A stretch of 64,000 nucleotides of DNA, from NCBI GenBank assembly GCA_035221665.1, contig CM069135.1:90396001-90460000 (forward strand). Direction: 5' to 3'. Each line of letters opens with the position of its first letter. Positions within the stretch are counted from its first letter, which is position 1. Positions 1-64,000 of the stretch are shown in pieces. The notes under the pieces are model-generated. The model did no database searches. It saw only the letters and a list, made by a program, of their open reading frames with translations, and was not told where the DNA came from. A program made the position numbers and the translations under genes. Source of the stretch: Okamejei kenojei. Lineage: Eukaryota.

Positions 1-1026
1 TGCCAGTCAGTGGCTGTGTAGAGGAGGCCCGTCCTTGTTTTTGGTTGTGGTCGGGGCTTCTCTCCAGCTTTGACAAAAGTGATTGATTTCTTTGGGGCGT
101 GGTGGTGTTTGCTGTTACCGATGGCAGTGGCTATGTTCTCAGCAACCACCTTGAGCACCTGGTCATGGTGCCACCGATAGCGACCTTCCCCAAGAGACTT
201 TGGGCAGTTGCTGAGGAGATGTTCTAATGATCCTCTTCCAGAGCAAAGTGGGCAGGAAGGTGTCTCACTCTTGCCCCAGACGTGGAGGTTTGCTGGGCTT
301 GGTAGGGCATCGTAGACAGCTTGGACAAGGAACCGGACGCGCTGGAAGTCTGCCTGCATGATGTTTGACCAGGTAATCCTGCTCTGCGGTATGCTCTCCC
401 ACCTTGTCCACCAGAGCTGCACCGTCCTGCTCACATGCTCGTCCTCCACACCTGCTCGGACCTCTTCCTGGATTAGATGGTGTCCCTCCTTGCCCTGGGC
501 CTTGCCAACCGGTGTCTTAGGGAAGTATCCCAAACCCGCTCTGCCAGTTGCCATGACTCCCACCAATGCCTTTTGCCTTAGGCGTGACTCTGCCACCTCC
601 ACTGCTTTCGCCGCCCTCCATTTCCTCCCTGTTCTCACCTCGATGCCAGCCGTTGACACCTTCTGGTCCTTGGAGTCCCTGTACCGCAGTGCCTCTCTTG
701 TTCGCGCCACCATAAACTCTTCCGTGAGGCCACTGAATGGGAGCTGCAAGATGTTACTGGTCCCATACAGTGCAGCACTGTTGAGGCTGCGGGGAAGGCC
801 AAGCCACCTGCGGAGAAAGCCGCTGATCTTCCTTTCGAGGGACTCAACTGTGGTCAATGGAACAGGGAAACCAGCAGAGGCCACAGGACTCGGGGCAGGA
901 TGGAATGCTGATAGATCCAGGCCTTGAATCTGCCTGGCAGACCTGACTTGTCGACTTTGGTGAGCCAGGCTTCAAGGTCTTTGATGGACTTTTGAATGGT
1001 GGCAGAATCTTTCAGAGTTGTCGGCT
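1..1026 (-). mobile_element. HERO-clade (RLE-type) non-LTR retrotransposon fragment: RT thumb region and CCHC zinc knuckle; runs off the left edge
   Basis: The minus frame reads VDKSGLPGRFKAWIYQHSILPRVLWPLL...RRWLGLPRSLNSAALYG...CPLCSGRGSLEHLLSNCPKSLGEGRYRWHHDQVLK, as in HERO ORFs. The 358-927 + ORF is its antisense shadow. Confidence 0.8.
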
Positions 1027-1741
1027 AAAAGATCTCAGAAGGATATTGTCAAAAGAGTGAGATTAAGTTGGGTGAGAGGAGGCTCTTTCGACCATAAACG
1101 TGTCTGTCTAAGCCAATTACACTAAATACCTTATGTCAGAACAATATTTTCTATGTTTCCTAATGCATATTCTAGTTCTCATATTAAGAAGGCGAAATAA
1201 GCAGTGGCAAAAATATTCCAAAGTTTCAGTCTTCCTCTAAATTAAGATTTAAGGAAATCTTTGCACAACAATAGGATTCTAAATAAAATCGCAGTTCTTT
1301 CTTAAATATTTTGTCTACTCCACTGCAAAATCTCCTCAAGGTATGTCTACTTTGAAGAAGTTCTCCTCCTCTCTCAGAAGACAATGTCGCCTATTCCTTC
1401 GCTCCATAGATGCTGCCTCACCCGCTGAGTTTCTCCAGCATTTTTGTCTACCTTCGATTTATCCAGCATCTGCAGTTCTTAAACATTTAACCAATACCAA
1501 TTGCTTATTAAATGAACAGATTACAAATAGTTTTAAAGCTCGTATTTTTGTTTTTATTTATAGAGCCTAAGGGGAACAGAAATTCTCACACATTGGCTAC
1601 ATCATGTCCACATCAGCTGAAATACAGCTGAAATATGTGTGGTTTCAGGGTCTTATTACCACCTTGAAACATAAAATAATGTCAATTATGTTTTTGTGCA
1701 AACTAAACAATGTATAAAACCAATTATAAATGTATACATAA

Positions 1742-1872
1742 CGGGTGAGGCAGCATCTATGGAGAGAAGGAATTGGTGACATTTCGGGTCGAGACCCTTC
1801 TTCAGACTCTGAAGAAGGGTCTCGACCCGAAATGTCACCAATTCCTTCTCTCCTGAAATGCTGCCTCACCCG
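1742..1872. repeat. Near-perfect palindrome made of head-to-head Penelope-derived terminal repeats (hammerhead-type motif on both arms)
   Basis: cgggtgaggcagcat...gacccttcttcaga c tctgaagaagggtc...atgctgcctcacccg; the same family recurs many times in the window. Confidence 0.8.
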
Positions 1873-3039
1873 CTGAGTATCTTCGATTTTACCAGCATCT
1901 GCAGTTCTTTCTTAAACATATAAATGTATATATTATATAAATAACAATTATAAATATATTACCTAAAAAAATCAACACATCTTCGGTTATAATGTGGTTA
2001 TTTCGATATATTCAAGTTGGGAATGTATTTCAAACGTTCTTAAATTTATCAACTTGTATGTTGATATATAATTTCAACATTTTTGATCAAATTGTAAGAT
2101 TCCATAATTCTAAAGGTTCCAAGGAGTTCTTAAACAATAGCAAAATTAATTTGCCTGCAGCACCACCTTGTAGACACAAGGAGAATATCAGGGAGTAAAT
2201 ACTAACGGCTGTGCCACTGCATTACCACAGGAGGTCACTATTTTTCAGTACTTTCTCTGAAAACCTGAGAGAAGGCTTTGAAAATATTAAACATCTCTAA
2301 ATTAATCTTAAAATTATGCTGCATTGTGGTGGAAGTTCAGCAGAATACACACTTCTGATGCAAAGAAATTAGGAAATTCAGGTGTGAGTTGCGTTCATTT
2401 TATACTCTGCCAGAATCTCCTTGCACTGTAACTTCAAATTCACAAAACCTCCACTGAAATTGTCAATACTGCTGCAGCTATGTTTCCTAAATAAAAGTGC
2501 AGGAAGGCCAAAATTCCTACATTTAAGATCTGTGATATTTCAGGTATTTATACCAACAACATGGCTTTTGGATCAGCCATGATCATATTGAATGGAATGG
2601 CTTGAAGGACCGAATGGCCTACTCTTGCACCTATTTTCCATGTTTCTAACAACATCGCCTGACCAAGACGATCCTACAACTCTGACACAGTGCCACTATC
2701 AGGACAACGGGCTTTTATGGCCAAGTTAAGACTATACATTTTTATCAACGTTGGACTTCAATCATACAAAATGGTGCAAAGAAGCGTGGCGACTCTTGTG
2801 TGTGCTGCCTCAATGTAATCTACTATTCCTATGCTCTTGTACTTAAGTATGATTTAACCTTTAATAAGATTCTTCACCAAGATGCAAAAAAGGAATTTCC
2901 CTCCACCTAATTACATGTGCCAATGAAGTACCATTGAACCATAGAATAACACAAATTAATTAGACTAGTATTATTTTTTTTTTTAATCAGAAAGTTGGAT
3001 GTTTTTAAAAATGTGATGGTGAGAGTTCAATTGAAGCCT

Positions 3040-4464
3040 GGCTAATGAGAGAATTATAGGGCCTTGTCTGGAAAAAAGAAAGAGGCATGGGTCAGGTACA
3101 GGCAGCTGGGATTTCTGTACCCCTGGAGGAGTTTAGAGGACTGAGGAGCATACTCCAGAAGGAAATCAAGAGGGCAAAATCGAGGCAAAAGCATCTCTGG
3201 CACATAGGATTAAGGAAAGTCCAAGAAGATTTTACAAGTACATTAAGGGAACGTAGTTAACTAATGTGAAAACAGGGCCCTTCAGAAGCCATCTATGTGA
3301 GGAGATGCAGGAGATGCGCAAGATCTTCGAAGAATATTTTTTCTCAGTTTTTACTGTGAAGAAAGACATGAAGATCAGGGATCTCAGAACAGGAAATGGA
3401 GATGTCTAGATGACAGTCCGTATTACGGTCAAGGAGGTGTTGGACTTCTCCCAGGACTGATAAGATATATCCAAGGACACTGTGGGAAGCTAGAGAAAAA
3501 GTTGCAGAAGCCCTCATGGAGATATATGAATCACTATTAGGTACGGTGAGGTTCTGGATGACTGGAGGGTGGGTCATTTTAGATTAGTTTAAATATGCAG
3601 TGCAAAAACCAGCCCTTCAGCCCACCGAGTCCGCACCGACCTGCAATCCCTGCACATTAACACTATCCTACACACACTAGGGACAAATTACATTTATACC
3701 AAGCCAATTAACCGTCAAACCTGTACGTCTTTGGAATGTGGGAGGGAACCAAATACACTCAGTCACGGAGAACGTACAAACTCCATACAGACAAGCACCT
3801 GTAGTCGGGATCGAACCCAGGTTTCCGGCGCTGTAAGCACTGTAAGGCAGCAACTCTACCGCTGCGCCATTGTGCCAGCCCAATGTAATGCCTACTTTTA
3901 AGAAGGGCTGCAAGGAAAAGCCTAGGAACCAAGTTAGTGAGGCTAACATCTGTGATAGGTAAATTACTGGAAAGGATTCTGAGATAAGATATATATTCAT
4001 TTGGATAGACAAAGGCTAATTACGGATAGGCAACGTGGTTTTGTATGTGGAAATTGTATTTCACAGATTTGATTGAAGTTTTCAAGAAGTAACCAAGAAG
4101 GGTGATGAGGGCAAGGCCATAAATGATGTCTCTATGGACCTTAGCAAGGCCTTTGATAAGGTTTTGCATTGTAGGCTGCTCTGAAAGGGTAGACCGCATG
4201 GGATCTAAGAAGAGCTAGCTGCATGGACATAGAATTAGCTTCACAGAAGGAAGCAGAGGGTGGTAGTAGGAGTTGTTTTTCAGACTCTAGGCCTGTGACT
4301 AGTGGTGTGCATCGGCTGGTGTTGGGCTCATTGCTGTTTGTGGTTTATATCAATGATTTAGATAAGAATGCGCAAGGCATGATTAGTAAGTTTGTAGATG
4401 ATACTAAAGTAGGTGGAAATGTAAACAATGAAGATGGTTATCAAAAATTACAGCAGGATCTTAA
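3040..4464 (+). mobile_element. Degenerate CR1 LINE, 5' part (continues at 9111)
   Basis: RT remnant VTSGV...LGSLLFVVYINDLD...SKFVDDTKVGG...YQKLQQDL; the reading resumes directly after 9110. Confidence 0.85.
3578..3881 (-). mobile_element. tRNA-derived V-SINE (HE1-like)
   Basis: Minus strand has an A box (tggcgcagcggtagag), a B box (ggttcgatcccg) and a CR1-like 3' tail. Confidence 0.8.
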
Positions 4465-5453
4465 CAGGGCTGCCAACATTGGGTGAGTTGGGAGTGAGAA
4501 ATTGCGAGACCAAGCCCGAGGGAGCATAGCGGAACTTTTGCATTTTTCAGCTTGAAATTGTGTTATATGGTGCATACTGTAGCGAGTCTTTTAACTTACA
4601 CTTGAATGTAATATATATGCTTTAAATTGGACTAGCTATGAATAAGGTTAGAGTAAATTACATTCCTAATTACATTCCACAGTAGAGCCCAGGCTCTGAT
4701 CCATACGTGCAGCACATGAATGATCTTAGTGTATTAATGTATGGAAATCAGATTATAATCAAACACTTCGCCCATGTTGGCCAACCTGAGTCTCACTGCA
4801 CACTTGGTACTACTCCTGGCCCTGACTCCAGTTGCATACCTTCTCTCATTCCTGTCCCTGATTCCAGCCCTACACCTGGCCCCCTATTCTACCCTGATCA
4901 TAGCTGCTTAGGTTCCCAGTGCTGAACACACCCCTGGTCCCAGCTTTGACTGCACACCGAGTACTATTCCAGACCTTGACTCTGGATGCACACTTGGCCT
5001 TGCTCCTAGCCCCTTTGCACTGACAATATATCTGGCCCACACATAAAGCCCCATATCTGACCCCCTGGACTTAACCTATTACGTTCAAGTCCACAGGTGA
5101 TTAACTAATGCAGTAATCCTTTATGGGGCACTTCACAGACCAAATTATGGATAACAAAATGTGCTACACCCATTGGCTTCCTTGTTATCTAACATGCTAG
5201 TCACTTTGTCAAAGAAGTCATCAATTGGTTGAACACAATTCCCATCCATAAAATTATACTCACTCAGCTGTATAAGTATTCTGATACCATTTCTTTCATT
5301 TTCGTAACAAACTGTCCTGAGGTCATCAGGCTAATTACAAATCAATAACATTAGCCAACTCCGAAACATGAAGCACTGAGCATTGGGATCCAAACATCAT
5401 GGACAACTGTCCTCAGTTCCCCACTCACATCTGGCAGTATTCTCCATCTGAAC

Positions 5454-5690
5454 CAGGGGCCGCGGAGCGTTTTTGAAAGTGGGGAGGCTGAGCGATCACT
5501 GATCACTGGCCTTGGGGGTACCCGGTGAGGGAGTGGAGCAACCGAGTGGGGAGAGGGTGTGGAAGAAAGGGGTCCCCCCTCCCAGGGTAGGAACCTTTTG
5601 AAATTTGATGTATTAAAATCATGTTTTAGTGCATTGTAGAAGTATGATTTCAAAGTTTTTTGTATGAAGTATTTTTAAGAGGTAACCTTT
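5454..5690 (+). mobile_element. Truncated MITE-like DNA transposon end
   Basis: Starts caggggccgcggagcgtttttgaaagtgggg with a G/C-box subterminal region typical of MITEs; no partner TIR seen. Confidence 0.4.
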
Positions 5691-6327
5691 TAAGGGGTAA
5701 CTTTATCCACACAAAGGGTGGTGGGTGTTTGGAACAAGCTGCCAGAGGAGGTAGTTGAGGCAGGGACCATCCCAACATTTAAGAAACAGTTAGACTGATA
5801 CATGGATAGGACAGGTTTGGAGGTATGGACCAAAAGCAGGTAGCGTAGCTGGGACATGTTGGCGGGTGTGGGCAAGGTGCGCTGAAGGGCCTGTTTTCAC
5901 ACTGTATCACTCTATGACCACATTATGCCTCCACCATGCATGAATGCTTCAAAATCAAGTGGTCGAGTTTTATTGCCATATACTCAAGCACAGAAACATA
6001 GAAAATAGGTGCAGGAATAGGCCATCGGCCCTTTGAGCCAGCACTGCCTTCAATATGATCATGGCTGTTCATCTAGAATCAGTACCTCTTTCTTGTTTTT
6101 TTCCCCATATCCCTTGATTTTGTGAGCTAAATGTAACTCTCTCTTGAAAGCATCAGTGAATTGGACTGCACTGCCTTCTGTGGCAGAGAATTCCACAGAT
6201 TCACAACTGTGTGAAGAAAATTTGTCCTCATCTCAGTCCTAATTGCCACCCCCCCCCCCCCCCCTTTATTCTTAAACTGTGACCCCTGGTTCTGAACTCC
6301 CCCAACACCGGGAACATTTTTCCTGCA
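5690..6327. mobile_element. Two CR1 3'-end fragments (+ 5690-5920; - 5995-6327) inside the TIR element
   Basis: FTQRVVGVWNKLPEEVVEAG motif on +; the (TTTCTATG)-tailed CR1 3' end on -. Confidence 0.8.
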
Positions 6328-6432
6328 GTTACAGTAAGTGAAAATCTAGCAGACAAGCAGGATGCTTTGTCCAACCACCCCCATTTGAAGTCCACTATCT
6401 TCCACCGTTTCTACCCAGTGCCTGGTACTTAC

Positions 6433-6588
6433 TTCCAGCAGCCACTGGTTGTCCTCCAGGATGCACCGAGCCGCAGCCTGATCCATGCCGGTCACCCGGG
6501 CGAATTTGGCACAGAGACTCTCACAGCAGCGGAGCAACGCTTCAGACGCCTCCGACAGGCCAGGACTCATGCACTGAGGCTGCTCCAT
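6433..6588 (-). CDS. TDP2: TDP2-like (5'-tyrosyl-DNA phosphodiesterase) first coding exon, N-terminal UBA-like domain; no downstream exons found, probably a captured fragment
   Basis: 52 codons MEQPQCMSPGLSEASEALLRCCESLCAKFARVTGMDQAAARCILEDNQWLLE resemble human TDP2 (as recalled) RRLLCVEFASVASCDAAVAQCFLAENDWEME. Kozak GCCATGG at 6588; phase-0 GTAAGT donor at 6432, where TDP2 exon 1 is recalled to end. Confidence 0.72.
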
Positions 6589-6834
6589 GGCCGGAGCTGC
6601 AGTGAGCGACTCGCCAGCCCGGCAAGCACTCGCTAGCCCCGCTCCCCGTCTGCATCTGACCCCGTCGCTACTTCTGCTTCCAACTCCCATGGCCCATGCA
6701 GTTGATATGAGTTTTGAAATTTTTGTTGATCACAGAATTTCTCACGACAGAGCGTGAGAAATTTGTGATCAGCGTGAGAATTTTGGCGAAATGCGTGATT
6801 CTCCACGCTCAGTGCATGGGAGTTGGCTTCCCTG

Positions 6835-7880
6835 CCTCTCTATCCCCCTCTCTCCTCCCCCTCTCTCACTCTCTCCCCCTCTTTCCCTCCCCCTGTCTTC
6901 TCCTCTCTCTCCCTCCCGCTCTCTCTCTCCCTCTCTCTGTCCCCCTCTCTCCCTCTCCCCTCTCTCCACCTCTCTTTCCCTCTCTCTCCCACCTCACTCT
7001 CATCACTCTCTCTCTCCCCTCACTCTCTCTCTCCCCTTCCTCTCTCTCTCCTCTCACCCCCCCCTCTCTCTCCCCCTCTATCTCTCCCTCCTTTCACCCC
7101 CTCTCTCTCCCCCTCTCGCTCTCTCCCCCCTCTCCTCTCTCCCCATCTCTCTCCCCCTCTCTTTTCCCCCTCTCTCTCTCTTTCCCCTCTCTCTTGTCCC
7201 CTCTCTCCCCTTCCCCTCTCCTCTCTCCTCTCTTTCCCCTCTCTTTCCCCTAACTCTCCCCTTCACTCCCTCCCTCTCTCTCTCCTCTCTCCCTCTCTTT
7301 CTTCTCTCTCTCCCCCTCTTTCTTCTCTCCCCCTCCTTCTTCTCTTTCCCCCTCGCTTCCCCCTCTCCCTGTCTCTCTCCCCCCCTCTCTCTATCTTTCT
7401 CCATCCCTCTCTATTTCCCCCTCTCTCTCCCTCTCCATATCGCTCCCTCTCCACACTCTCTCCCCCCTCTCTCTCTCTCTCCTCTCTCCTCTCTCTCATC
7501 CCCCCCCTCTCTCTCCTCCTCTCTCATCCTCTCTCTCCCCCTCTCTCTCCCCCATTTCTCCTCCCACCTCAATTCTCCCCCTTGCTCTCTCTCCCCTCTC
7601 TGTCTCTATCTCCTATTTCTCTTTGCCCCCCATCTCCCTCTTATTCCCCCATTTTTCTCTTTCCCCTTTCCCTCTTCCCCCCTCTCTCTTTTCCCCCCCC
7701 TCTCTCCCATTCTCTCCTACCCTCTCCACCCCCTCCCTCTCTTCCCTCTCACTCTCCCCCCTCTCTCCTACCTCACTCTCTCTCCCCTCTCTCCCCCCGC
7801 TCCCTCTCTCCCCTCTCTCTCCTCTCAGCCCCTCTCTCTCTCCCCCTGTCTCCTTGTCTCCTTCCCCTCTCTCCACCTCC
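6835..7880. repeat. ~1.05-kb CT-rich polypyrimidine/polypurine low-complexity tract
   Basis: Almost only C and T on +; it generates the spurious S/L/P and E/R/G ORFs. Confidence 0.95.
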
Positions 7881-7901
7881 CTTTGAGAGTCTCTGTCCCA
7901 G

Positions 7902-7976
7902 TGGCACAGAGACTCTCGCGGCAGCGGCGCAACGCTTCCGACGCTTCCGATCGGCCCGGGACTTGCACTGCTCCAT
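7902..7976 (-). pseudogene. Frameshifted second copy of the 5' half of the TDP2-like exon, forming part of the transposon right arm
   Basis: ATG GAG CAG TGC...TCG GAA GCG TCG GAA GCG TTG CGC CGC TGC CGC GAG AGT CTC TGT GCC A aligns with 6507-6588 with a net frameshift; it ends in a fold-back hairpin at 7885-7917. Confidence 0.7.
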
Positions 7977-8002
7977 GGCCGGAGCTGCAGCGAAGCGACT
8001 TC

Positions 8003-8885
8003 CGCCAGCCCCGCAAACACTCCCGCAACACTCCAGCCCCGCAAACACTCACTCGCCAGCCCCGCAACACTCGCCAGCCCCGCAAACACTCGCCAGCCCC
8101 GCAACACCTCGCCATCCCGCAAACACTCTCGCCAGCCCCGCAAACACTCGCCAGCCCCGTAAACACTCGCCAGCCCCGCAAACACTCGCCATCCCGCAAA
8201 CACTCGCCAGCCCCGCAAACACTCGCCAGCCCCGCAAACACTCGCCATCCCGCAAACACTCGCCAGCCCCGCAAACACTCGCCATCCCCGTAAACACTGA
8301 AACACTCGCCAGTAAACACTCGCCATCCCGCAAACACTGTAAACACTCGCCGCCCCCAGGCCACCGCCAAACACTCGCCAGCCCCGCAAACACTCGCCAG
8401 CCCCGTAAACACTCGCCAGCCCCGCAAACACTCGGCAGCCCCACGCTCGCCAGCCCCGCAAACGCTCGCCAGCCCCGCAAACGCTCGCCAGCCCCGCAAA
8501 CACTCAGCCCCGCAAACACTCGCCAGCCCCGCAAACCTCGCAGCCCCGTAAACGCTCGCCAGCCCCGCAAACCTCGCCCGCCCCGCAAACACTCGCCAGC
8601 CCCGCAAACACTCGCCAGCCCCGCAAACACTCGCCAGCCCCGCAAACACTCGCCAGCCCCGCAAACACTCGCCATCCCGCAAACACTCGCCAGCCCCGCA
8701 AACACTCGCCATCCCGCAAACACTCGCCAGCCCCGCAAACACTCGCCAGCCCCGCAAACACTCGCCAGCCCCGCAAACACTCGCCAGCCCCGCAAACACT
8801 CGCCAGCCCCGCAAACACTCGCCAGCCCCGCAAACACTCGCAGCCCCGCAAACACTCGGCAGCCCCGCAAACACTCGGCAGCCCG
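8003..8885. repeat. GC-rich minisatellite, 19-bp unit CACTCGCCAGCCCCGCAAA, ~45 copies
   Basis: Tandem array visible directly, with variant units (gccatcccgc, ccccgtaaa, aacgctc). Confidence 0.95.
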
Positions 8886-9110
8886 GCTTTCCGTTCGCAT
8901 CTGTTCCCGCCGCTACATCTGCTTCCATCCCTCCCTCAGCCCCGGCTCTCCAACACCCGTGGCCCATGCAGTTTATCTGAGTTTTGAAATTTTCGTTGAT
9001 CACAGAATTTCTCACCACAGAGCGTGAGAAATTTCTGATCAGCGTGAGGGCGTGAGAGTTTCTTCAAATGCGTGATTCTCACGCTCAAAGCGTGAAAGTT
9101 GGCAGCCCTG

Positions 9111-9688
9111 ATCTTAATCAGTTGGACAAGTAGGCCCAAGAATAGCTAATGGAGTTTAATGGAGCTAATGCATTTTGGGACGTCAAACTAGAGCAGGATC
9201 CTCACAGGTGCCTGGGGAGTGTTGTCGAGCAGTGGGATCTAGGAGTACAGGGCACATAGTTTCCCGTCACAGGTAGATGGGGTGGTTAAGAAGGATTTTG
9301 GATACATTGGCCTTCATCAGTCAGAGCATTGAGTATAGAAGTTGGGACATTACGCAACTATTGTAAAAATACATTTATCGTATTGTTTAAGAAAGAACTG
9401 CAGATGCTGGAAAAATCGAAGGTAGACAAAAATGCTGGAGAAACTCAGCGGGTGAGGCATTTTTAGAGTATTTAGAGCATTTAGAGTATTTAGAGTATTA
9501 GAGTATGAGAGTATTGTGTTCAGTTTTCCTCACCCTGCTACAGGAAAATGTCATTTAAATGGAAATAAATACAGAGAAGATTTATGAGGGTGCTGCTAGG
9601 ACCGGAGCACCTGAACAGTAGGGATTTTATTCCTTGGAATGCCGGAGGATGTGGGGTGATCTTATAGAGGTATATAAAATCATGAGGG

Positions 9689-9690
<2 letters not shown>
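9111..9690 (+). mobile_element. CR1 LINE continuation (3' end resumes at ~13155-13480)
   Basis: DLNQLDK...MEFN, EYCVQF, GDLIEVYKIMR motifs are collinear with 3040-4464. Confidence 0.8.
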
Positions 9691-9737
<47 letters not shown>

Positions 9738-12700
9738 TTTATTACGGACTCAAGGTCCAGACAAGGGGCAACATTACATTAAAAATGCATTGCATCTCAA
9801 ATACCATAAATATATATAAAATCATGGTAAATCACATAAAAAATATCATTTATATATTAAAAAAAAAAAAAACCACAATACTTAATGTAGATGGTTTTAT
9901 ATGCAACCAATAATATAGTTACCTCACTCCCATTAACCCCGCCCAGTTAACATCAATCATAACGCCTTCCCCTCAGTAGAAAAAATGTAGCCTGCTTGAA
10001 GGTGTATGTATACCCAGTGCTATCATTAAAAGATGTTGTACACTTAAGACCTTGTAAAGTTTTCATTTACATGGTGTCGAAGCTGGAAGATACTTGCGTC
10101 TCCTGTTTATCGGTTTTTTTATTTCTTTTTTTTGATTTGTGTTTTTTGTGCTTTGATCTCTTTGGCCATGGCGTCCTCTTGCAGAAGCCGAGCAACTTTG
10201 TCTTTGATGCTGACATCTCTGAGCGCTGGGCCACGTTTGAATTTGATTTCACACACTTTGTCACGTCGCACACCGCGCTGATCCTGACTCCCTTAAAGCT
10301 TCCCTCCTCCTCAACCTTGTCGACCTGATGCCATGAAGAGAAGCCAGAACTTTCACCTACGCTCCAGCGGTCCCTGGGTGTCGATGGTGCGGGGATTACT
10401 CCTGCAGAGTCTGCTGACGACACCCGCTTGCCTGCTACGTAAGTTCAGGAGATTTGTGACCTGCCCTCGAACCGCATTCTAGAGAGGGCACGGTTCTTTA
10501 CGAGGAACAGTTTTGCCTGATGAACTGTTGAATGATTTATTGCTGATTTGCGTTATCTCGCCCAGCGGTGCCGTTTTGGCGACATGACAGACCAGCTCAC
10601 TAAGACATTTTAGTAACTGGCATGCGTGACCAAAGCTGCGATGTGAGCTTTTGAGGGATCCGGATCTAACGTTGGACAAGGCTATGCAGCCTGCAGATTG
10701 TCTGAGTGTTTTGCAAGAGGACCACCGGGATTTGGGCAATAAATCTGTCAACCTGGCTGGTTTAGGAGCCCACAGCCTCGGGTGGGAAACAATGTTTTTC
10801 TGCCGCGTGCCCGCCCTGGACCTGGCGATGTGCCCCGAAAAAGATGCCGAACTGTAACTACATGCACCATAGACTGTCGACGTGTCCCGCCTCTGGTAAA
10901 ACCGTAACTTTGTAAAACTTGAACCATTTTCTCAGCCTCCTGTCGCATACTCCGTTCCCGTGGGAGCCAGGCACAAGCTTCCAGTCCCATCTAAACATGC
11001 TGGCCCAATCTGATCTCTGTTTCGACTCACAGCCCAATTTAGTTGAGTGCAATGGTGCGGAGCCAATTAATTCTGCCGAGGACTCTCATGTGTTTACCCT
11101 CCTACAGACACACCCGCCCACCGCAATGATCCCTCCGTACCTGTGACTGTCAATGCGTAACCTTCTCTGCCAAATTAGATACTGGCGCGAGAGTCATGTT
11201 TTGTCCATGAATCTTTTCAACAAGATAAGGAGTAATGAGCCTCTGGTTGTTGACGATGCTACCCTGCACGCCTATGGTGGAGAGATTCTAAGGCCTGCGG
11301 GGAGGGCCACTTTAACTTGCGTGCTGCAAAAGGCCACAAAAACCTGGTTTTCTATGTTTTGAACTCTGACTGTGTAACCCTGTTGGGCAACCGTGCGTGC
11401 CAGGATCTTGGCCTGGTCTCCTTTGACCGCACGGTCCCACAAAGTGGCAACTCTCGTTTGACCCGGTTGCTGAATACCAGGACCTGTTCGACGAGACCTG
11501 GGGAAGTTACCAGTGTCAATACCATATTTCCATTGACCCAAATATACAACCCGTGGTCCGCGCACCTCACAGGGTGTCTCACGCCATGAAGGACAAGGTC
11601 GAGGCGATGCTCAACGAGATGGTCGAAAAGGGGGTGCTAGTAGCAGTTAGCGAGCCCACCGATTGGGCATGTTTTCACCCCTAACGGACTAAAGCCCGAC
11701 CCCTTGAAGGCCGCTGCCATCTCCGAAATGCAGCCCCCACCGACGTGCCAGGTCTGCAACGATTCTTGGGCATGGTGAACTACCTTGGCAAGTTTATACC
11801 AACCTCAGTGAGCTGAGTGCTCCCCTGCGGAAACACTTCTCCACTTTTGGGACCCCGGTCAGGCTGCAGACTGACAACGGCAGGCAGTTTACAAGCCGAG
11901 AATTCAAAAGCTTTGCCGACAAGTGGAACTTTGTGCATTTCACCAGCAGCCCAGAGTACCCACAGAGCAACGGCCTAGCAGAACGGGCCGTCCGCAGCGC
12001 CAAGCTTCTGATGGAACAGGCGCGACTATCCAATTCTGATTTGTATTTGGATCTCCTGAACCTCAGGAATGTTTCCAGGGGATCCGGCCATGGGGTCCCC
12101 TGCTCAGCGTCTGATGTCCAGAACTACCAGATCCACCGTCCCGATTGCCCAGCGCCAGCTGAAACCTCGGGTGCTGGAGCCCGCCTCCGTGCAGAGGCGA
12201 ATTCAAGAGAAACATGACAGCCAGCGGCGTTCCCACGATCGGTCGTGCAGACCACTCGATCCTCTGTTGCCCGGGACAGGTTGTTCGTTTGCAGACCGCC
12301 AGTGGGCACTACCGTCTGGCCACCGTGGTTGGGGTGGCCGACTCACCTCGTTCGTATCTGGTCGACTGTGAGGGTTCCATCTACCGAAGGAGCCGACAAC
12401 ACCTGCTTGCGGTCAATGAGCCACAGCCGCAGCCCCCTGGGCCCTATGCCCCTCCACTCTCCTATCAGCAGCCGGCTGCCGCCCCGGCTGGTGTTCCCTG
12501 CATGCCTCGGTCCCCGTCGCGGGCGCCTGGTTCCCCTCTGCGCGGGTCCCCTGTTGCCGATCGCGGTTCTCCCTCTCCTGTTCTCCCACCCCAATGCCCT
12601 TCCCTGGTTCCTCGGCTGCCTTGCGTCCTCCTGCTTCTTCTGCTCTTTCGGGGGAGGGGGAGACATCCGTACGCGCTCGGGCAGGATCAGTAAGCCGCCT

Positions 12701-26084: not shown

Positions 26085-27900
26085 AATAGACAATGACAAT
26101 ATGTGCAGGAGTAGGCCATTCGGCCCTTCGAGCCAGCACCGCCATTCAATGTGATCATGGCTGATCATCCCCAATCAGTACCCCGTTCCTGCCTTCTCCC
26201 CATATCCCCTGACTCCGCTATCTTTAAGAGCCCTATCTAGCTCTCTCTTGAAAGTATCCAGAGAACCGGCCTCCAGCGCCCTCTGAGGTAGAGAATTCAA
26301 CAGACTCACCACTCTCTGTGAGAAAAAGTGTTTCCTTGTCTCCGTTCTAAATGGCTTACCCTTTGTTCCTAAACTGTGGCCCCTGGTTCCGGACTCTCCC
26401 AACATCGGGAACATGTTCCCTGCCTCTAGCGTGTCCAAACCCTTAATAATCTTATGTGTTTCAATAAGATCTCCTCTCATCCTTTCTAAACTCCAGAGTA
26501 TACAAGCCCAGCCGCTCCATTCTCTCAGCATATGACAGTCCCGCCTTCCCGGGATAGCAAGAATGTCCTTCCTCAAATTAGGGGACCAAAACTGCACACA
26601 ATACTCCAGGTGTGGTCTCACTCGTCGTGGCTATCCCTCGAGGTTGAGGATGATGGTCTACGTTCTGTTGTTTTTATGGACTCTCAGGTGGCTTATTAGT
26701 CCAATCTTGGCTTTGACAGTTCTTCTGCATTCAGGACAAGTAATTCCAGGTGGCAGGTCGGGCTTTGGTTGTTGCTGCCTCTCTTTCCGTTTTCTACTCT
26801 TTTCTTCTAATTCTGTGCATCTCTTGGCTTCGAAGGTCACTGTTCCTTCTTAGATGATGGTTCGCCATAGTTTCCTGTCCTTGGCATTGGTTTCTGAATT
26901 GTCGATGTTGATTTCACATTTCGTCACGCTGGCTTTTAAGGAATCTTTGAATATCTTCTTTTGTCCGCTTCTTTGATGTGTGCCTTCTTTAAGCTGGGAG
27001 TAGAAGATTTGCTTTGGTAGACGCTCATCTTCCATCCGAACAACAAGACCGACCCATTTTAGTTGGTTCTTGATGACGAAGGCTTCAATGCTAGATGTTT
27101 TTGCTTCATTCAGCATGCTGACGTTGGTTCTTCTGTCTTCCCAGCTGATGGTTAAGCTGCTTCTAAGACATCGTTGATGGAACTTTTCAAATGTTTTCAG
27201 AATGCGTCGGTATGTTGTCCAGATCTTTGATGCATACATCAGATAGGGCCCTAGTGTGGTCTCACTAGGGCCCTATACAACTGCAGAATTACCTTTCTGC
27301 TCCTATACTCAACTCCTCTAGTTATGAAGGCCAACATGCCATCAGCTTTCTTCACTGCCTGCTGTACCTGCATGCTTACTTTCATTGACTGATGAACAAG
27401 AACCCCCAGATTCCGTTGTACTTCCCCTTTTCCCAACTTGACACCATTTAGATAATAATCTGCCTTCCCGTTTTTGCTACCAAAGTGGATAACCTCACAT
27501 TTATCCACATTAAACTGCATCTGCCATGCATCTGCCCACTCACCCAACCTGTCCAAGTCACCCTGCATTCTCATTGCATCCTCCTCACAGTTCACGCTGC
27601 CACCCAGCTTTGTGTCATCTGCAAATTTGCTAATGCTACTTTGAATCCCTTCATCTAAATCATTGTTGTATAGTGTAAATAGCTGCAGTCCCAGCATCGA
27701 GCCTTGCGGTACCCCACTAGTCACTACAGGTACACTGCAAGTCCAGGTACACTACATCCACTGGCTCTCCCTTGTCCATTTTCCTAGATACATCCTCAAA
27801 GAATTCCAGAAGATTAGTCAAGCATGATTTCCCCTTCGTAAATCCATGCTGACTCGGACTGATCCTGTTACTGCTATCCAAACTCGGACCGATCTTGTTA
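26085..27900 (-). mobile_element. CR1 (HER1-like) LINE RT/3' fragment split by an RTE insertion
   Basis: ORFs 27251-27724 and 26175-26621 are consecutive CR1 RT segments (KFADDTK; RPHLEYCVQFWSP). Confidence 0.9.
26623..27253 (-). mobile_element. 5'-truncated RTE-clade LINE
   Basis: WTTYRR...FHQRCLR...WEDRRTN...RMEDERLPKQIFYSQL, then a C2H2 finger CPECRR...LISHLRVH; 13-bp TSD gtgtggtctcact (26610-26622, 27254-27266). Confidence 0.9.
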
Positions 27901-47316: not shown

Positions 47317-48141
47317 TTTTGGGCAGATGCATGGCAGATAAAGTTTAATGCGGATAAATGTGAGGTTATCCACTTTGGTATCAAAAACAGGAAGGCAGAT
47401 TACTATCTAAATGGCGTCAAGTTGGGAAAAGGGGAAGTACAACAGGATTTGGGGGTCCTTGTCATTCAGTCTATGAAAGTAAGCATGTAGGTACAGCAGG
47501 CAGTGAGGAAAGTAAATGGCATATTGGCCTTTATAACAAGAGAAATCGAATATAGGAGCAAAGAGATCCTTCTGCAGTTGTATAGGGCCCTAGTGAGACC
47601 ACACCTGGAGTATGGCGTGCAGTTTTGGTCCCCTAATTTGAGGAAGGACATTCTTGCTGTTGAGGGAGTACAGCGTAGGTTTACAAGGTTAATTGCCGGG
47701 ATGGCGGGACTGTCATATGCTGAGAGAATGGAGCGGCTGGGCTTGTACACTCTGGAGTTTAGAAAGATGAGAGGGGATCTTATTGAAACATATAAGATTG
47801 TTAAGGGTTTGGACACGCTAGAGGCAGGAAACATGTTACCGATGTTGGGGGAGTCCAGAACCAGGGGCCACAGTTTAAAAATAAGTGGTAAGCCATTTAG
47901 AACGGAGACGAGGAAACACTTTTTCTCACAGAGAGTTGTGAGTCTGTGGAATTCTCTGCCTCAGAGGGCGGTGGAGGCCGGTTCTCTGGATACATTCAAG
48001 AGAGAGCTAGATAGCGGAGTCAGGGGATATGGGGAGAAGGCAGGAACGGGGTACTGATTGGGGATGATCAGCCATGATCACATTGAATGGCGGTGCTGGC
48101 TCCGAGGGCCGAATGGCCTACTCCTGTACCTATTGTCTATT
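47317..48141 (+). mobile_element. Young CR1 (HER1-like) 3' fragment
   Basis: ORF 47503-48057 (RPHLEYGVQFWSP...FFSQRVVSLWNSLP) followed by the 3' UTR. Confidence 0.9.
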
Positions 48142-50844
48142 GAGAACATATAGATGAAGGCATTTGGATAGAGTCTTAGTCATAATGTGATACAGTGTGG
48201 AAATAGGCCATCCAGTCCAACTTGCCCACACTGGTCAAGATGTCCCAGCTAGACTAGTCCTACCTGCCCACATTTGGCGCATATCTCTCCAATCTGTCCC
48301 ATCCATGTACGTGTCAAACTGTTTCTTAAATGGTGGGATAGTCCCTGCCTCAACTAACTCCTCTGGCAGTTTGTTCCATACATCTACCACCCTTTGTGTG
48401 AAAAGGTTACCCCTCAAATTCATATTAAATATTTTTCCCTTCACCTTAAACCTATGTCCTCTGGTCCTCGATTCACCTACTCTGGGCAAGAGACTCTGTG
48501 CATCTACCTGATGTATTCCGACTGATACCCAGAAGGAATTCAATAAAGTGCCACATGAAGGGCATGTGCACAGGAAAATATTGTCACAAGTCTGTTAATA
48601 TTAATTGAGGACAGGTTATCGCAAAGAAGAAAGTCAATCTGAATAAATGAGGCTTTTTCAGGAAGTAACCAGCGGAGTGCCCCGTGGAACATGTGATGCT
48701 CTCAAATAATTACTATTTATATTAATTACTTGGATGAGGAGACAGAATTTAAGGTGTCCATGTGCGCTGATGACATAAAATCGTGTATGACATGATGAGG
48801 ATATTCAATCAGAAAGTGTGAGTGAGTGAATGAGTGAGTGAACAAACACTTCACAAATGGAGTTTAACATACAAAAATGTGAGGTTGAGAAATTTGGTGA
48901 GAGAAATCAAAAGGAAGACTATTTTCTAAATGGAAATAAAAAGAAAATGGAGTACAGAGGAATCTGAGATGATATGTTAGCATGCATTTGTAGTAATAAA
49001 TTAAGAAAGTAAATGTCAATTGGTCCTTATTGCTGAGGAGTTGAAATATTAAATTAGTTAAGTATTATAAGGTCCTACGGTCATTAGTAGTAGGAGTAGA
49101 ATTAGGCCATTCGGCCCATTAAGTCTGCCATTCAATCAAAAATTGCTCACAATATTCCAAATGTGGCCTTACCAGTGCCTTATAGAGCCTCAACATTACA
49201 CCTCTGTTTTTGTATACAAGCCCGCTTGAATAAATGCTAACATTGTTTGCTTTCTTTACTACCGATTCAACTTAGAAACATAGAAAATAGGTGCAGGAGT
49301 AGGCCAGTCAGCCCTTCGAGCCAGCACCACCATTGGCTGATCATCCAAAATCAGTACCCTGTTCTGGCTTTTTCCCCCATATCCCTTGATTCCCTTAGCC
49401 CTACGACTTGCAGATTCACTTTTTGAGAATCCTGCACCAGCACTCCCAAATCCCTTTGCACCTCCAATTTCTGAATTCTCTCCCCATTTATAAAAAAGTC
49501 TATGCCTTGATTCCTACTACCAAAATGCATGACTCCACACTTTTGCTACACTATATTCCATCTGCCACTTCTCTGCCCACTCTCCCAACTTGTCCAAGTC
49601 CTTCTGCAGAGTCCCTGCTTTCTCTACACTACTTGCTTGTCCACCTATTTTCAGATCATCCGCAAACTTGGCGACAAAGCCTACAATCCTCTCGTCCAAA
49701 TCATTAATATGCAATGTGAATAGTAGCACCAACCCCTGTGGAGCTGTTATAAGTGTACAGGGTGTTGATAATGCCACAAATACTGTGTACAGTTTTGGTC
49801 CCTTATTTAAGAAAGGTTATTTCTAGCATTGGAGGCAGTCCAGAACAGATTCACTTTGTTATTTCCAGGAATTAAAAATATGTCATCTAACATAAGACTG
49901 AAATAGTTGGATAAGCATTCTTTAAAGGTTAGAAGAATACGTGGTGAACTTATTGAAACATGTAAGATCTTAAGTACCAATAATATGTTCAGATGTCTCT
50001 ACTAGTAGTGGAATCTTTACAGAGGGGTAGAGTTACAAGATAAGGGGATGGTCTTTTGAAATCGAGGTGTGATCTAATTTCTTCTCACGGAGGATGGTGA
50101 ATCCATGGAATTCTGTACTACAGATAATTGTGGAAGCTCGGTCATTGGAGGTATTTAAAGAGGAGGTAGATAAACTTTTGAAATGTTTTTAAAACCTTTG
50201 AAACCTTTCACACAAAGGGTGGTGGGTGTATGGAATGAGCTGCCGGAGGAGGTAGTTGAGGCAGGTACTGTTGCAACGTTTAAGAAACATTTAGACGGGT
50301 ATATAGATAGGAGAGGGTATGGGCCAAACACAGGCAAGTGGGACTAGTGTAGATGGAACATGTTGCCTCTAATTAGGCAGAAGGGCCTGTTTCCACACTG
50401 TAAGACTCAATGCCTGAATGAAGTAATTAAGGGCCATGAGGCAGAGAAGAGGAGTTGAGGTCTGGGGAAAATCAGCCTTGATCATGTAGAATAGCAGAGA
50501 CCAGGTGGCTCACACCTGTTCCTATTTTCTGACGTATATCCTTGATCTACAGTGACTGAGCTAACTCCATGGAAGAAGCAGAAGCAGAGCATTCAGCAGC
50601 AGCAAGAATCACCCCGCCTGCATTAATTGCAGGGATCCTCAAAGACTTGCAGGTTTGTTCAGGGATTAAGTTACAAATGCCTTTCCAGCTGTGGGACAGA
50701 TACGTATTCCACAGTGGACTTCCAATTCAGTGTGGGTACAGTCTGTCATCCATTGGAAATCTGGCAGTTTTGATCATCCCCAGACTAGTGCTGCTTGTTG
50801 TCCTCTTCAGTAAATACCTTATGCCACCTGCCTGGCAGTGAACA

Positions 50845-58301: not shown

Positions 58302-61231
58302 TTAATATCAGAAATAGAAGTGCCTGAAATTGGTGCATTTGGCATTTCAAAATGCCTTCAATAATGGGTCACAAAAGACGTTAACATAACAATTAATTGG
58401 GATTGGGAATATTGCACCTGCCTATATGAAGGAATATGGGACATTTTCAGGTTGGGATGCTAAGACCAGTGAGTCACTGCTGGACCCAACCTGGTCTCAA
58501 TCCATATTGATGATTTGGTGTGGGAATCAAGTGCCATATATCCATGTTTTCTCAATACAAAAATGGGTGAGAATGTGCATTATGCAGGGGATCTAGAGAA
58601 TCTTCAGAGACTATAGAGACCTAAGTGAGTTGACAAATACACCTATGCATGGTAATGATCTAAACATTAAAGAACTTTACATCTCCTTGAGATGATCATA
58701 GACCAATTCACTAATGCAGGAGGATGAACTATTTGACAGATTTGCAGTAATGAAACAAGATTAAGGTAAAGCTAATGCAATCAAATGGTGGTGATGGTGG
58801 AGGGGAATGTGGAATTGATATTACAAGTGAGCATTCAGGGCAAACAACCTATTTGTAAAAGGGAATGGTCCAATTTTGCCTGTACCAAAATCCATTTGCC
58901 ACGATTTTGCCAATACTTCAATCCATTTATAACCTATTTTCATTTACTGCTTCCATGTACACTGCTCACAATGTTGCCTGTGTATGCATCATTGCCCGAC
59001 TCACCTATGTGGCTTTACATTCTACTGTGAGTAGCCAAGGGGCCAATATAAATCCTTGTGAGACATTGTCAAATGCTTCCAGTTATCCCTCATCAGTCTC
59101 TTGCTGCTCAGTTCCCTAACCAGGTCAATAATTTCACTGTGTTCCATGAACACCAAATTTAGACAAAACACTAAACTCTGGGGGAATTTATCAAAAGCTG
59201 TCCGTGGCTTGGTAAATCCCACTGTACGTAATTTTTTTTTAATTTAAATGAACCCATTTTGTCAAGTATGATTTATACTCTGATCAGCTAGAAGCCTTTA
59301 GATATTCGTCACTATTTTTAATTGTAGACCTGAATAACTTTCAACAACATCTTGTCTATGATAATCCCCTCGTCTTTTTTAAATAGTGGACCAAAATGAC
59401 AATTTTTCAATTAGAACATTGAACAAGTACATGGATAGTCGAGGTTTAGAACGATATAGGAAAAAACACAGGCACATGGGACTAGTGTAGATGGAGCATG
59501 TTGGTTGGCGTGGGCAAGTTGAGCCGAATGGCCTGTTCCCATATTGTATGATTCTAGGTCACTAATTACAGGACAGGAACAGGTCCTTCAGCCCACGATG
59601 CTTGTGCCCACCATGATGCCAACGTTAACCAATTCCATCTGCCTTCACATGGTCTGCAGTTCTCCATTCTCTGCTTGCTCAAGTGCTGTCTATATGCCTC
59701 CTATCCGTTGCCATTGTATCTGCTTCCACCATCTCCCCAGGCAACACATTTTAGGCACCAAACACGCTCCGCGAAAATCTGCCTCAGACATTTCCTTTCA
59801 TCTTTCCCCCCTCTTATTTGACATTTCCCACCTGGAACAAACAATTGACTATCTAACCTATCTATGCCTTTCATAAGTTTGTATATTTCTATCAGGTCAC
59901 CCCTCTCCCCCCACCCAACTACAGAACCTGGTGCTCCACAGAAAGCAATTCAAGTTTGTCCAACTTCTCCTTGCAGCTAATACTCTCTAATTCAGGCACA
60001 TGTTGGTGAATCTCACTCTTTTGAGGAACTCTCACCCAATGGCGACATTAATTTCTTCTTTCCTAATTGTTTGCTTATCTTATACTTATAATAGTGCACA
60101 TTTGGCCCATTGAGTCTGAGCAGGCTCATTTAGCCCATACTCACTCTCTTTATTTCCTGGTATGACTGTGTCTTAGTGTTTCTCATACCGACCCATCAAC
60201 TCCTCTTTGTTTATGTTGCCATTAATCTATATTAGGGAATAATTTCCAGTTGCCAGTTAAATTATCAGTATGTTTTTGAGATGCAGATGGAAACTGAAGC
60301 AACCAGCTGTTTTTGTTTCTCTGGCAAACTTCTACTCCTGCCCTTTTGGGATTAACTGATTGTGTAATACTTTAATATATATATATATTTTTTTTAACAT
60401 CTTCCACTGGTCTTTACCCATTAAGAAGATTTGTCCAATTTAATATGAGACAGTATCTGTATTTCTACTCATCAGCCTTTCCTAAGCCTACAATTTTATT
60501 TGCAATTTCATGTTTCTCTCTCTCTCTCTCTCAAACATTATGTGCACTATAATAGAGCAAATCAGTTAGTTTATGGCATACCACCACCAATTGAGCATTG
60601 ATTCCATGGTAGGGGAATCAAAGACCAGAGGCTTAAAGCGAGAGGGGAAAGAGTTAATGGGAACTTGTGGGACAACTTTTTCACATAGAGGTGGGTGGGG
60701 GGGGGGGGGGGGGGGGGAGATATATGGAACAAGCTGGCAGGGGAAGTAATTGAGGCAAGTACAATATCATTTGAATGACATTTAGATAGCTACATGAATC
60801 GGAAAGGTTTAGATGGATTATGGGCCAAACATGAGTAAATGTGATTAGTTTGGATCGGACATCTTGGTCGGCATGGACAGGCTGGGCCAAAGGGCCTGAT
60901 TCCATGCTATATGACTAAATCTCTTCAGTAGACAAGAATATTTTGAAAATTGCCTTAGGTAGCAAAGGTTGTTGCTTGAATCACAACTCTTGAACTTAAA
61001 ACAATCATGGATTTCAGTATTTGCAAAAGGCATCTGACGACAGCTTTACCTTTATCCTGTGAAATTTAGGAGACAGCAAATAAGTAAACTTAATTTCCAT
61101 TATATTTATATTTATGCTTTCACAGGATGTAGACATCTCTGGCAATACTAACATTAATTATTGATCCCAAATTGTCCTAACCAGTGGAGGCAATTAAACA
61201 TCAATCACATTGGTGGGTTTACAGTCATATA

Positions 61232-62817
61232 CAGTGGCTTGCAAGAGTTTTCATACCCTTTGAACTTTTCCACATTTTGTCACATTACAACCACAAACGT
61301 AAATGTATTTTATTGGGATTTTATGTGATAGACCAAGTCAAAATGGTGCATAATTGTGAAGTGGAAGGAAAATGTTACACGGTTTCAAAATTGTATTACA
61401 AATAAAAAACTGAAAAGTGTGGCATGCAAAGGTATTCTGCCCCCCTGATTCAATACTTTGTAGAACCACCTTGCGCTGCAATTACAGCTGCAAGTCCTTT
61501 GGGGTAAGTCTCTACCAGCTTTGCACATCTAGAGACTGACATTTTTGACCATTCTTCTTTGCAAAATAGCTTAAGCTCAGTCAGATTGGATGGAGAGTGT
61601 CTGTGAACAGCAATTTGCAAGTCTTGCCAGAGATTCTCAATTGGATTTAGGTCTGGACTTTGACTGGGCCATTCTAACACATGAATATGCTTTGATCTAA
61701 ACCCATTGTAGCTCTGGCTGTATGTTTAGGGTCGTTGTCTGCTGAAAGGTGAACCTCCGCCCCAGTCTCAAGTCTTTTGCAGACTCTAACAGGTTTTCTT
61801 CCAAGTTTGCCCTGTATTTGGCTCCATCCCTCTTCCCATCAACTCTGACCAGCTTCCCTGTCCCTGCTGAAGAAAAGCATCCCCACAGCATGATGCTGCC
61901 ACCACCATGTTTCCACAGTGGGGATGGTGTGTTCAGGGTGATGTGCAGTGTTAGTTTTCCGCCACACATAGCGTTTTGCATTTAGGCCAAAAACCTCCAT
62001 TTTGGTCTCATCAGACCAGAGCACCTTCCTCCACATGTTTGCTGTGTCCCCCACATGGCTTGTGGCAAACTGCAAACGGGACTTCTTATGGCTTTGTTTC
62101 AACAATGGCTTTCTTCTTGCCACTCTTCCATAAAGGTCCGATTTGTGGAGTGCACACTAATAGTTGTCCTGTGGACAGATTCTCCCACCTGAGCTGTGGA
62201 TCTCTGCAGCTCCTCCAGAGTTACCATGGGCCTCTTGGCTGCTTCTCTGATCAATGTTCTCCTTGCTCGGCCTGTCAGTTTAGGTGGACAGCCATGTCTT
62301 GGTAGGTTTGCAGTTGTGCCATACTCTTTCCATTTTCGGATGATGGATTAAATAGTGCTCCTTGAGATGTTCAAAGCTTGGGATTTTTTTTATAACCTAA
62401 CCCTGCTTTAAACTTCTCCACAACTTTATCCCTGACCTGTCTGGTGTGTTCCTTGGGCTTCATGACGCTGTTTGTTCACTAATGTTCTCTAACAAACCTC
62501 TGAGGCCTTCACAGAACAGCTGTAGATTACACACAAGTGGACTCTATTTACTAATTAGGTGACTTCTGAAGGCAATTGGTTGCACTGGATTTTATTTAGG
62601 GGTATCAGAGTAAAGGGGGCTGAATACTTTTGCACGCCACACTTTTCAGTTTTTTATTTGTAAAAAAATGTGAAAATTTTCCTTCCACTTCACAATTATG
62701 CGCCACTTTGTGTTGGTCTATCACATAAAATCCCAATAAAATACATTTACTTTTGTGATTGTAACGTGACAAAATGTGGAAAAGTTCAAGGGGTATGAAA
62801 ACTTTTGCAAGCCACTG
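61232..62817 (-). mobile_element. Full-length Tc1 transposon (Passport-like), 1586 bp
   Basis: ~200-bp IR/DR-type TIRs cagtggcttgcaa...ttgcaagccactg; TA TSD on both sides. Confidence 0.95.
61450..62463 (-). pseudogene. Frameshifted DD34E Tc1 transposase
   Basis: MKPKEHTRQVRDKVVEKFKAGLGYKK...WSDETK...QQ(frameshift)...WPSQSPDLNPIENLW...AQGGSTKY*; split across several ORFs. Confidence 0.92.
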
Positions 62818-64000
62818 TATAGGGCAGGCTAGGTAACAATAGCAAATTCCTTTCTCTTATGCACATTACTTAATCAGAAGAATTTTACAATAATTCTGCA
62901 GTTTAATTCTAGATTATTTAATTACTTGAATTTCAATTTAATGTAAATTAAATATAAATTAAAAGGGTGTCAAAAATTATGGTGAATGGGATTGAGAGGG
63001 AAAAATAGATCAGCCATGATCGAATGGCGGAGCAGACTCGATGGCCCTATGACCTAATTCTGAGCTGATTTACCTAATTCTGTTCCTATGTCTTATGATC
63101 TTAAATTTCCCAACTATCGCAGGTACTATCGCAACTTTTAAGAAACATATAGACAGGTAGATGGATAGGATAAGTTTAGAGGGATATGGGCCAAACGAAG
63201 GCAGGTGGGACAAGTGTAGATGGGACATGCTGGTCGGCGTGGAAAAGTTGGGCTGTAGAGTTGATTCCACGCCGTATGACTCTATTACTATTATTATGTG
63301 GTCATAAGAAGTCTATTTGGTTCAATTTCAGAGGACTTTGCTGTTGGTCCAGTAACTTAACCACCATAGCACTGTGTCTGAGGTTATAATGCAGCAAATA
63401 AATGGAGCAACCTTGACCACAGAACTATTTATGGTGTTTAGCTGTACAATTTCTTTCACTTGGCCTTGCTTTCACTGTGTTCCAAATCAAAGGACCGATG
63501 TAACAAAATTGTATTGTGCAAGAACAATGCTCTGCATCTGTAATGCAAAGTAGAGGAAGACCCATGCAGAACATCAGACAATCAGGAAAGAAAGATGTGG
63601 CTGTTATTTGGGACAGATCAGGCACAATCTGGTTTAAATGTTAAAGGCTTTTCACTATCATTTCATATGGTGAATAATTGAAATCTGTACATCATCCACT
63701 CTTTCTTTCAGAATTAACATCAACTCTGATTTTATTTTAATTAATGTGCATAGAACTGTTATATTTTACAACACAAAAAATATCAAGATTTTATTTTCTA
63801 GAAATATACTTGTGCTTCTGAAATTTAGTTTCAGGCAATTTTTTGAATGGTTGTTCTAATGACCATTTCTGAATACAAAATGACTTTTGACCAGCTCACT
63901 AGTCCTGAAATTATTTTTGCAATAATCCTAGGTCCTGAAGCATTAAGATCTCTGAAGATAAACTCTGGACAAAAAAATGTAAAATAAAGAGCAGTGGGAA

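Follow-up and report, generated by a model that had tools for sequence, protein, structure and literature searches.

We describe here a transposon of 4,646 bp (4465-9110) that is very probably a high-copy Pack-TIR: a non-autonomous cut-and-paste transposon of skates that captured the 5' end of TDP2, a DNA-repair gene, and spread it. The element lies in a window of 64 kb, by which we mean the whole stretch of skate DNA that was analysed. Directly observed are its terminal inverted repeats (TIRs) and target-site duplication, an orphan TDP2 exon between them, the family-level read depth of this exon and the TDP2 homology outside skates. According to the course of events that we propose, about 35 bp of leader and exon 1, along with its splice donor and the first part of intron 1, would have been captured in a skate ancestor, by gap repair or template switching, and placed just inside the right arm. 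A transposase acting in trans would then have carried the loaded element to a great many places, of which one has been seen with its target duplication. The features of the locus are collected in Table 1.

Table 1. Features of the TDP2-bearing element and its target site (window coordinates)
Feature	Position	Strand	Description
Target-site duplication, left copy	4458-4464		ATCTTAA, within LINE reverse-transcriptase remnant
Left TIR	4465-4477	+	Perfect 13 bp; 13/13 against the outer right TIR (9098-9110)
Left arm and family interior	4478-5688		Family-level depth in 4/4 read runs
LINE-type repeat pieces inside the element	5689-6326		73% match to 47824-48418 and other window repeats
Putative start of TDP2 intron 1	6327-6432	-	Begins with GTAAGT donor; read-through common to P0002, P0003 and P0005
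TDP2 exon-1 core, UBA-like domain (presumably captured)	6433-6588	-	52 codons, open frame
Upstream TDP2 codons and leader, inner copy	6589-6690	-	25-bp deletion and frameshift
Inner right arm	6691-6834		GCGTGAG-type subterminal repeats; left boundary approximate
Inner right TIR, decayed	6822-6834		11/13 match
CT-rich microsatellite tract between the two right arms	6835-7884		About 1.05 kb
Fold-back, 33 bp	7885-7917		7885-7900 repeats 7902-7917 in inverted form where the outer copy is truncated
Outer TDP2 exon piece, truncated and frameshifted	7902-8012	-	Second ATG at 7976-7974
GC-rich 19-bp minisatellite	8013-8884		TRF array 8050-8884, 44.7 units
First TDP2 codons of the outer copy, with about 35 bp of leader	8885-8965	-	ATG 8928-8926
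Outer right arm	8966-9110		Subterminal repeats and perfect TIR 9098-9110
Target-site duplication, right copy	9111-9117		Same 7-mer, outside the outer TIR

The element is bounded by perfect 13-bp TIRs and a 7-bp target-site duplication. Since the identical 7-mer stands beyond both TIRs and the empty site restores a LINE alignment, the element is a single-block insertion. After removal of the element and one 7-mer, the sequence aligns gap-free and in frame with four further LINE remnants found in the window, and the aligned frame of one of these matches RVT_1. Inspection of the element's list of open reading frames by eye gave no transposase-like frame. In the interior, 5457-5660 resembles the end of a second, nested small DNA element, and in one read run (X15, record 11) there is a contig in which 5452-5615 stands beside another flank. 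Further to the right, read contigs (records 7 and 22) bridge the right edge of the LINE-type pieces into the intron piece. Rfam gave no matches in the 64-kb window. Helitrons have neither TIRs nor a target duplication; the element has both, and this class was rejected.

We consider the P superfamily slightly likelier than hAT because of the 7-bp target duplication, which was read at one site. Elements of the hAT type make duplications of 8 bp, and an 8-bp reading would need the terminal G of the right TIR to be counted as target, which breaks the TIR symmetry. In the P superfamily, where target duplications measure 7 bp (or 8 bp), those of 7 bp are described for 1360 and Galileo (PMC3698922), and our element also resembles these in its short TIR and subterminal repeats. 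Unlike in the two described cases, no transposase or sequence link was found here, and the assignment comes from one insertion site.

The frame of the exon-1 core in the inner copy (6588-6433, minus strand) matches the Pfam family UBA_4 (E 1.6e-4) as well as the UBA structure of TDP2, 6q00 (E 0.002), and its protein is 75-77% identical to TDP2 of Amblyraja and Leucoraja. The open frame ends in a GTAAGT donor (6432-6427), at the very point where the read-through and the TDP2 proteins part, and because of this the source of the cargo was presumably genomic DNA and not mRNA. What follows the donor is the putative start of TDP2 intron 1, as judged by comparison with the proteins. Upstream, the inner copy has been damaged: the first ATG has gone with a 25-bp deletion and the frame shifts near 6639, while the second ATG is intact. 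The first ATG, kept in the outer copy, is the start in the Amblyraja and Rhinoraja models, about 32 codons upstream of the second, and it is at the second that the Leucoraja TDP2 model starts. Using full-length Leucoraja TDP2 (P0004) in tblastn, we found no other TDP2 exons in the 64 kb, the 6.4 kb downstream of the donor included. A functional TDP2 gene at this place was ruled out by the lack of catalytic (EEP) exons and the damage to the inner skate-type N-terminus. With these exons missing and its first ATG deleted, the inner TDP2-like exon is an orphan pseudo-exon. It is like skate TDP2 (XP_055510903.1, XP_032869397.1) in its exon-1 core up to the donor site, and unlike it in having no catalytic exons or first ATG and in being enclosed in a transposon.

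The TDP2 fragment is cargo of the family and not a local oddity. Part of the region 4400-6834 is present in 20 of the 23 listed sequencing runs, and for four of these the reads were compared with this region in 30 bins. X1, X2 and X3, from organisms A, B and C, are DNA or unlabelled runs; X15 is by our guess RNA, and its coverage was given no weight in either direction on expression. Each of the four runs covers all 30 bins. Over the exon and the intron start (6368-6695), the summed depth is 3.2-4.0e5 in X1, 3.5-6.1e5 in X2 and 0.5-1.6e5 in X3, which is within the range of the non-LINE interior (4482-5711) in all three (2.4-12.9e5, 1.8-11.3e5 and 0.5-2.5e5, respectively). At seven listed sites between 6353 and 6670, the number of contigs that depart from the window at a single site is 58-118 per DNA run, and the listed family contigs are roughly 10-18% different from the window element. 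In X1 and X2 the last bin (6778-6834) has a depth 15- to 16-fold lower, and in X3 11-fold lower, which may reflect the decayed inner end or an edge effect. Contig depth itself is not copy number; dividing it by the depth of low-depth listed contigs gave estimates of about 600 to 11,000, depending on the run and on overlap correction, so that as a crude estimate the family may have roughly 10^3 copies.

The read-through from exon into intron also occurs in three protein records, P0002, P0003 and P0005. In the protein search 3 of 27 candidates matched, one of them being the real gene, and P0005 came from another search; looking for more element-derived proteins gave 2 of 87 candidates and then 1 match, again only P0002 and P0003. 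P0005 begins in the transposon arm and continues across leader, exon and intron; it has neither the minisatellite nor the hairpin of the outer copy. The three records are uninformative on selection because they were found as open frames. The ENA contig behind P0003 is 4,646 bp long, the size of the window element, which is probably a coincidence; the protein is only 77-80% identical. The presence of the TDP2 segment in other family copies, which the original prediction had put forward as a check, is thus borne out by the family-level depth and by these records.

Could tandem or segmental amplification, or transport within a larger element such as a Helitron, account for the high depth instead of TIR transposition? 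Both flanks are known for the window locus only, the listed loose contig ends being LINE-dominated, which leaves room for such an origin. However, the window copy has its own perfect TIRs and a target duplication in a LINE, and the distance of the listed family contigs from the window copy is that of old dispersed copies, and we regard such an origin as very unlikely. We give next to no credence to a local tandem duplication of the start of a real TDP2 gene or to an assembly artefact. Long microsatellite and minisatellite tracts are generally error-prone in assemblies, but 41 substitutions separate the two arms, the window holds no second TDP2 exon, and family-level depth is seen in three organisms along with independent protein records. 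As a full explanation, a purely local duplication or artefact, which the original prediction had named as the case against it, is refuted by the arm divergence, the orphan exon and the family depth.

Concerning the direction of the transfer, our comparisons indicate that it went from gene to transposon, with TDP2 as the donor, in the skate lineage. This follows from the occurrence of the TDP2 segment in sawfish and stingray, from the grouping of the element copies with skate TDP2 and from the existence of the terminus without TDP2. In Pristis (sawfish) and Hemitrygon (stingray), TDP2 carries a homologous segment that is 48-60% identical to the element copies. In the tree, the element copies join the skate genes in a single clade (bootstrap 100), with a 16-residue gap in common; the branch order within this clade has bootstrap values of 37-42, too low to date the capture within skates. 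No shark or chimaera TDP2 N-termini were among the 6 matches of 7383 candidates, all 6 of which are batoid.

The pattern of the terminus was found without TDP2 at four loci in metagenome contigs (L001-L004), and at no loci in viral contigs or GTDB genomes. Over its first ~90 bp the outer arm is 71-72% alike to the TDP2-free termini in L001 and L003, and over its first 55 bp it is 80% alike to that in L004. Because at least the terminal ~90 bp occur elsewhere without TDP2, the family probably captured the fragment and was not built from it. Among the four loci there is no autonomous or transposase partner with the same ends (THAP or hAT), and none has two intact ends together with a readable target duplication. 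Among protein-kinase exons, L004 holds at 1936-2245 a decayed element of 310 bp whose ends match the same TIR at 13/13 and 11/13; it contains no TDP2 sequence and no readable target duplication. In L002, the flank beside the same TIR (672-678) matches the window duplication 9111-9117 at 6 of 7 bases, which may point to a target preference; such a flank match is absent in L001, L003 and L004. A 14/15 match of L001 near the junction of gene and arm was dropped, as it was not retained by the alignment and is missing in L003.

We place the junction between gene and transposon sequence approximately near 8960-8970, from a weak match of 6 residues to the Amblyraja TDP2-like protein P0014 (E 0.027 in a tiny search). 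On this weak match P0014 seems to continue upstream into sequence unlike the arm, and its predicted N-terminus alone bears on whether the parent TDP2 lacks the arm. P0014 is a second TDP2 model, in which the UBA helices are lacking and the catalytic domain is kept; its contig is equal in size to that of TDP2. A 30-residue extension before the second ATG is seen in skate models only, and this leads to an exaptation scenario, in which a transposon inserted at skate TDP2 supplied the upstream ATG together with about 30 codons of the N-terminus and the family later took the adjoining exon. The models of Amblyraja and Rhinoraja have the extension, those of Pristis and Hemitrygon lack it, and in the element it directly abuts the arm. 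The stretch from the second ATG to the UBA helix is, however, ancestral batoid TDP2, the TDP2-free relatives of the terminus have no such codons, and the upstream sequence of P0014 weighs weakly on the same side. We therefore regard exaptation as highly improbable. Of the two possibilities raised by the original prediction, that an element gave TDP2 its start codon and N-terminus finds no support, given the homologous segment in Pristis and Hemitrygon TDP2 and the orphan state of the inner exon. The other, that the family is built from a TDP2 5' end, holds insofar as the family carries this end, but the end seems to have been captured, since the terminus occurs without TDP2.

The window element has two right arms, and what had been predicted for them from the letters was confirmed on each point examined, with the corrections given below. 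The stretches 6507-6834 and 7902-9110 are homologous (blastn E 7e-29 and 3e-47), and their global alignment has 286 matches and 41 substitutions, or 87.5% identity over ungapped columns (12.5% divergent). The inner TIR is decayed and the outer one perfect, and the predicted loss of CpG from the inner copy is found as well: TG or CA in the inner copy stands against CG in the outer at 9 sites, the reverse at 0. The outer copy is frameshifted as expected. The statement that the inner copy is in frame holds for the 52 codons up to the donor, but not for the region upstream, where the frameshift is located. Likewise, the homology does cover a TDP2 ATG, but in the Amblyraja and Rhinoraja models this is the second one. 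Finally, the homology of the arms stops at the centre of the fold-back, with the apex at 7901 and the end at 7902.

The outer copy owes its length to the 19-bp minisatellite of 44.7 units. Its repeat unit codes for those TDP2 residues that directly precede the second ATG, and the array grew out of TDP2 N-terminal codons; its CpG observed/expected ratio is 1.3. The fold-back has 16-bp arms with 1 mismatch and an apex of 1 nt. Its folding has a z of -4.6, with 0 of 200 shuffles as good, in contrast to the inner stretch that matches it, which folds no better than shuffles (z +1.1; 175 of 200 as good). Arms of at least 16 bp occurred 0 times in 20 block shuffles, versus 3 sites in the real window. 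A near-perfect palindrome of 93 bp at 1761-1853 (46-bp arms, 1-nt loop), made of a common short repeat, is bigger than the fold-back, and a 34-bp hairpin with 16-bp arms lies within a LINE remnant at 27243-27276. The hairpin is not a feature of the family, as had been considered: three X3 contigs (records 30-32) run straight through the apex position at inner position 6507, with at least 31 letters on either side, and read depth is level across it. Hairpin and truncation are not the family norm as far as reads compared with the inner arm tell, and rare hairpin-bearing relatives may exist. The fold-back is probably a repair scar, that is, a templated repair insertion. Since a 16-nt inverted copy stands at the deletion end and is joined to the CT tract, repair of the polymerase-theta type would fit; stem-loop templated insertions are described for this polymerase (PMC11292364).

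How the second arm arose is best discussed with two explanations. We somewhat favour a composite element, whose left TIR comes from one copy and whose right TIR comes from another, because both arms lie within a single target duplication and decay is confined to the inner TIR. A related second copy would have been situated about 1 kb past the first until a break took away its left part; fold-back synthesis of 16 nt would have closed this break, in the manner of end joining of the polymerase-theta type. The transposase would then have used the intact outer TIR instead of the decayed inner one, and it is for this reason that one target duplication would enclose both arms. Alternatively, the second arm may be an old local duplication of the first, made by fork stalling at the CT tract, fold-back and template switch, a possibility that we consider tenable but rather doubtful. 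It concerns the double arm only and is compatible with the Pack-TIR claim. The junction does sit in a stall-prone CT tract with a fold-back, and the arms have a rare base in common at 6670/8915, where 98.7-99.8% of the family depth differs; this base agrees with an old local duplication no less than with two unrelated copies. On the other hand, the divergence of the arms and the one-sided CpG decay suggest different ages or methylation histories. Moreover, at 6 checked places the outer copy equals the family majority at 3 (6626, 6659, 6803) and the inner copy at 2, with a gap at 1.

Pack-TIRs are known from animals. Tan et al. 2021 report 370 of them in 100 animals, four being multicopy (1.4%), with 3-5 copies in the examples; multicopy Pack-TIRs favour GC-rich cargo, and a multicopy case in the frog took a 5' region (PMC8277862). 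In the main text and supplements of this source TDP2 does not appear, and the elephant shark, the only chondrichthyan row found, has 0 Pack-TIRs. The skate element has most of what defines the class, namely TIRs at both ends, a target duplication and an internal piece of a host gene whose parent is recognised at the protein level, and it resembles the frog case in the 5' origin of its cargo. For a multicopy Pack-TIR, many loaded copies are indicated by depth, by the 58-118 contigs and by P0002, P0003 and P0005. It differs from the reported animal Pack-TIRs in its copy number, which going by depth may be about 10^3 in the three organisms, and in carrying a coding first exon along with the donor.

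The closest functional match is HelibatN3 of Myotis bats, which carries the promoter/5' UTR, first exon and part of intron 1 of NUBPL in about a thousand copies; in the same study, cargo from 5' ends reaches the highest copy numbers (PMC4224331; Thomas et al. 2014). Both are vertebrate non-autonomous DNA transposons that amplify the 5' end of a gene. HelibatN3 is a rolling-circle Helitron and includes the promoter, whereas the skate element has TIRs and a target duplication and seemingly captured only about 35 bp of leader. The main text of the little skate genome paper, as far as available, does not mention TDP2 (PMC10115646). We found no published TDP2 capture and no such skate family, which may already sit in Repbase, Dfam or a RepeatModeler library, and among the matches listed for the TIR letters in the literature there are only unrelated papers.

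The window contains other mobile sequences. At 61228-62821 there is a Tc1-like element with inverted ends of 149 nt that are 93% alike, and a frame within it (61986-62123, minus strand) matches HTH_Tnp_Tc3_2. A decayed region resembling an LTR retrotransposon extends over about 10300-12700, with 11708-12214 matching the integrase core rve.

Overall, Pack-TIRs and a bat Helitron that spreads 5' ends were already known, and what seems to be new here is a high-copy Pack-TIR with a coding first exon. Gene capture by TIR elements in animals has been reported as almost always single-copy, and such copy numbers were otherwise reported for bat Helitrons; the skate family would widen this picture to cartilaginous fish. 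The locus itself records a composite transposition, if our favoured explanation is right, together with a probable fold-back repair scar and a minisatellite born from coding sequence. In practical terms, TDP2-like matches in skate genomes, reads and repeat libraries would mostly be transposon cargo. The finding also raises the question whether hundreds of dispersed UBA exons with a donor have been recruited into host transcripts. It is conceivable, if unlikely, that the family acts as a genome-wide dispenser of a first exon, offering start codons, a ubiquitin-binding UBA domain and a consensus splice donor at about a thousand or more places, and that some of its copies are spliced to host exons lying downstream and yield skate-specific UBA fusions, or that its transcripts regulate TDP2.
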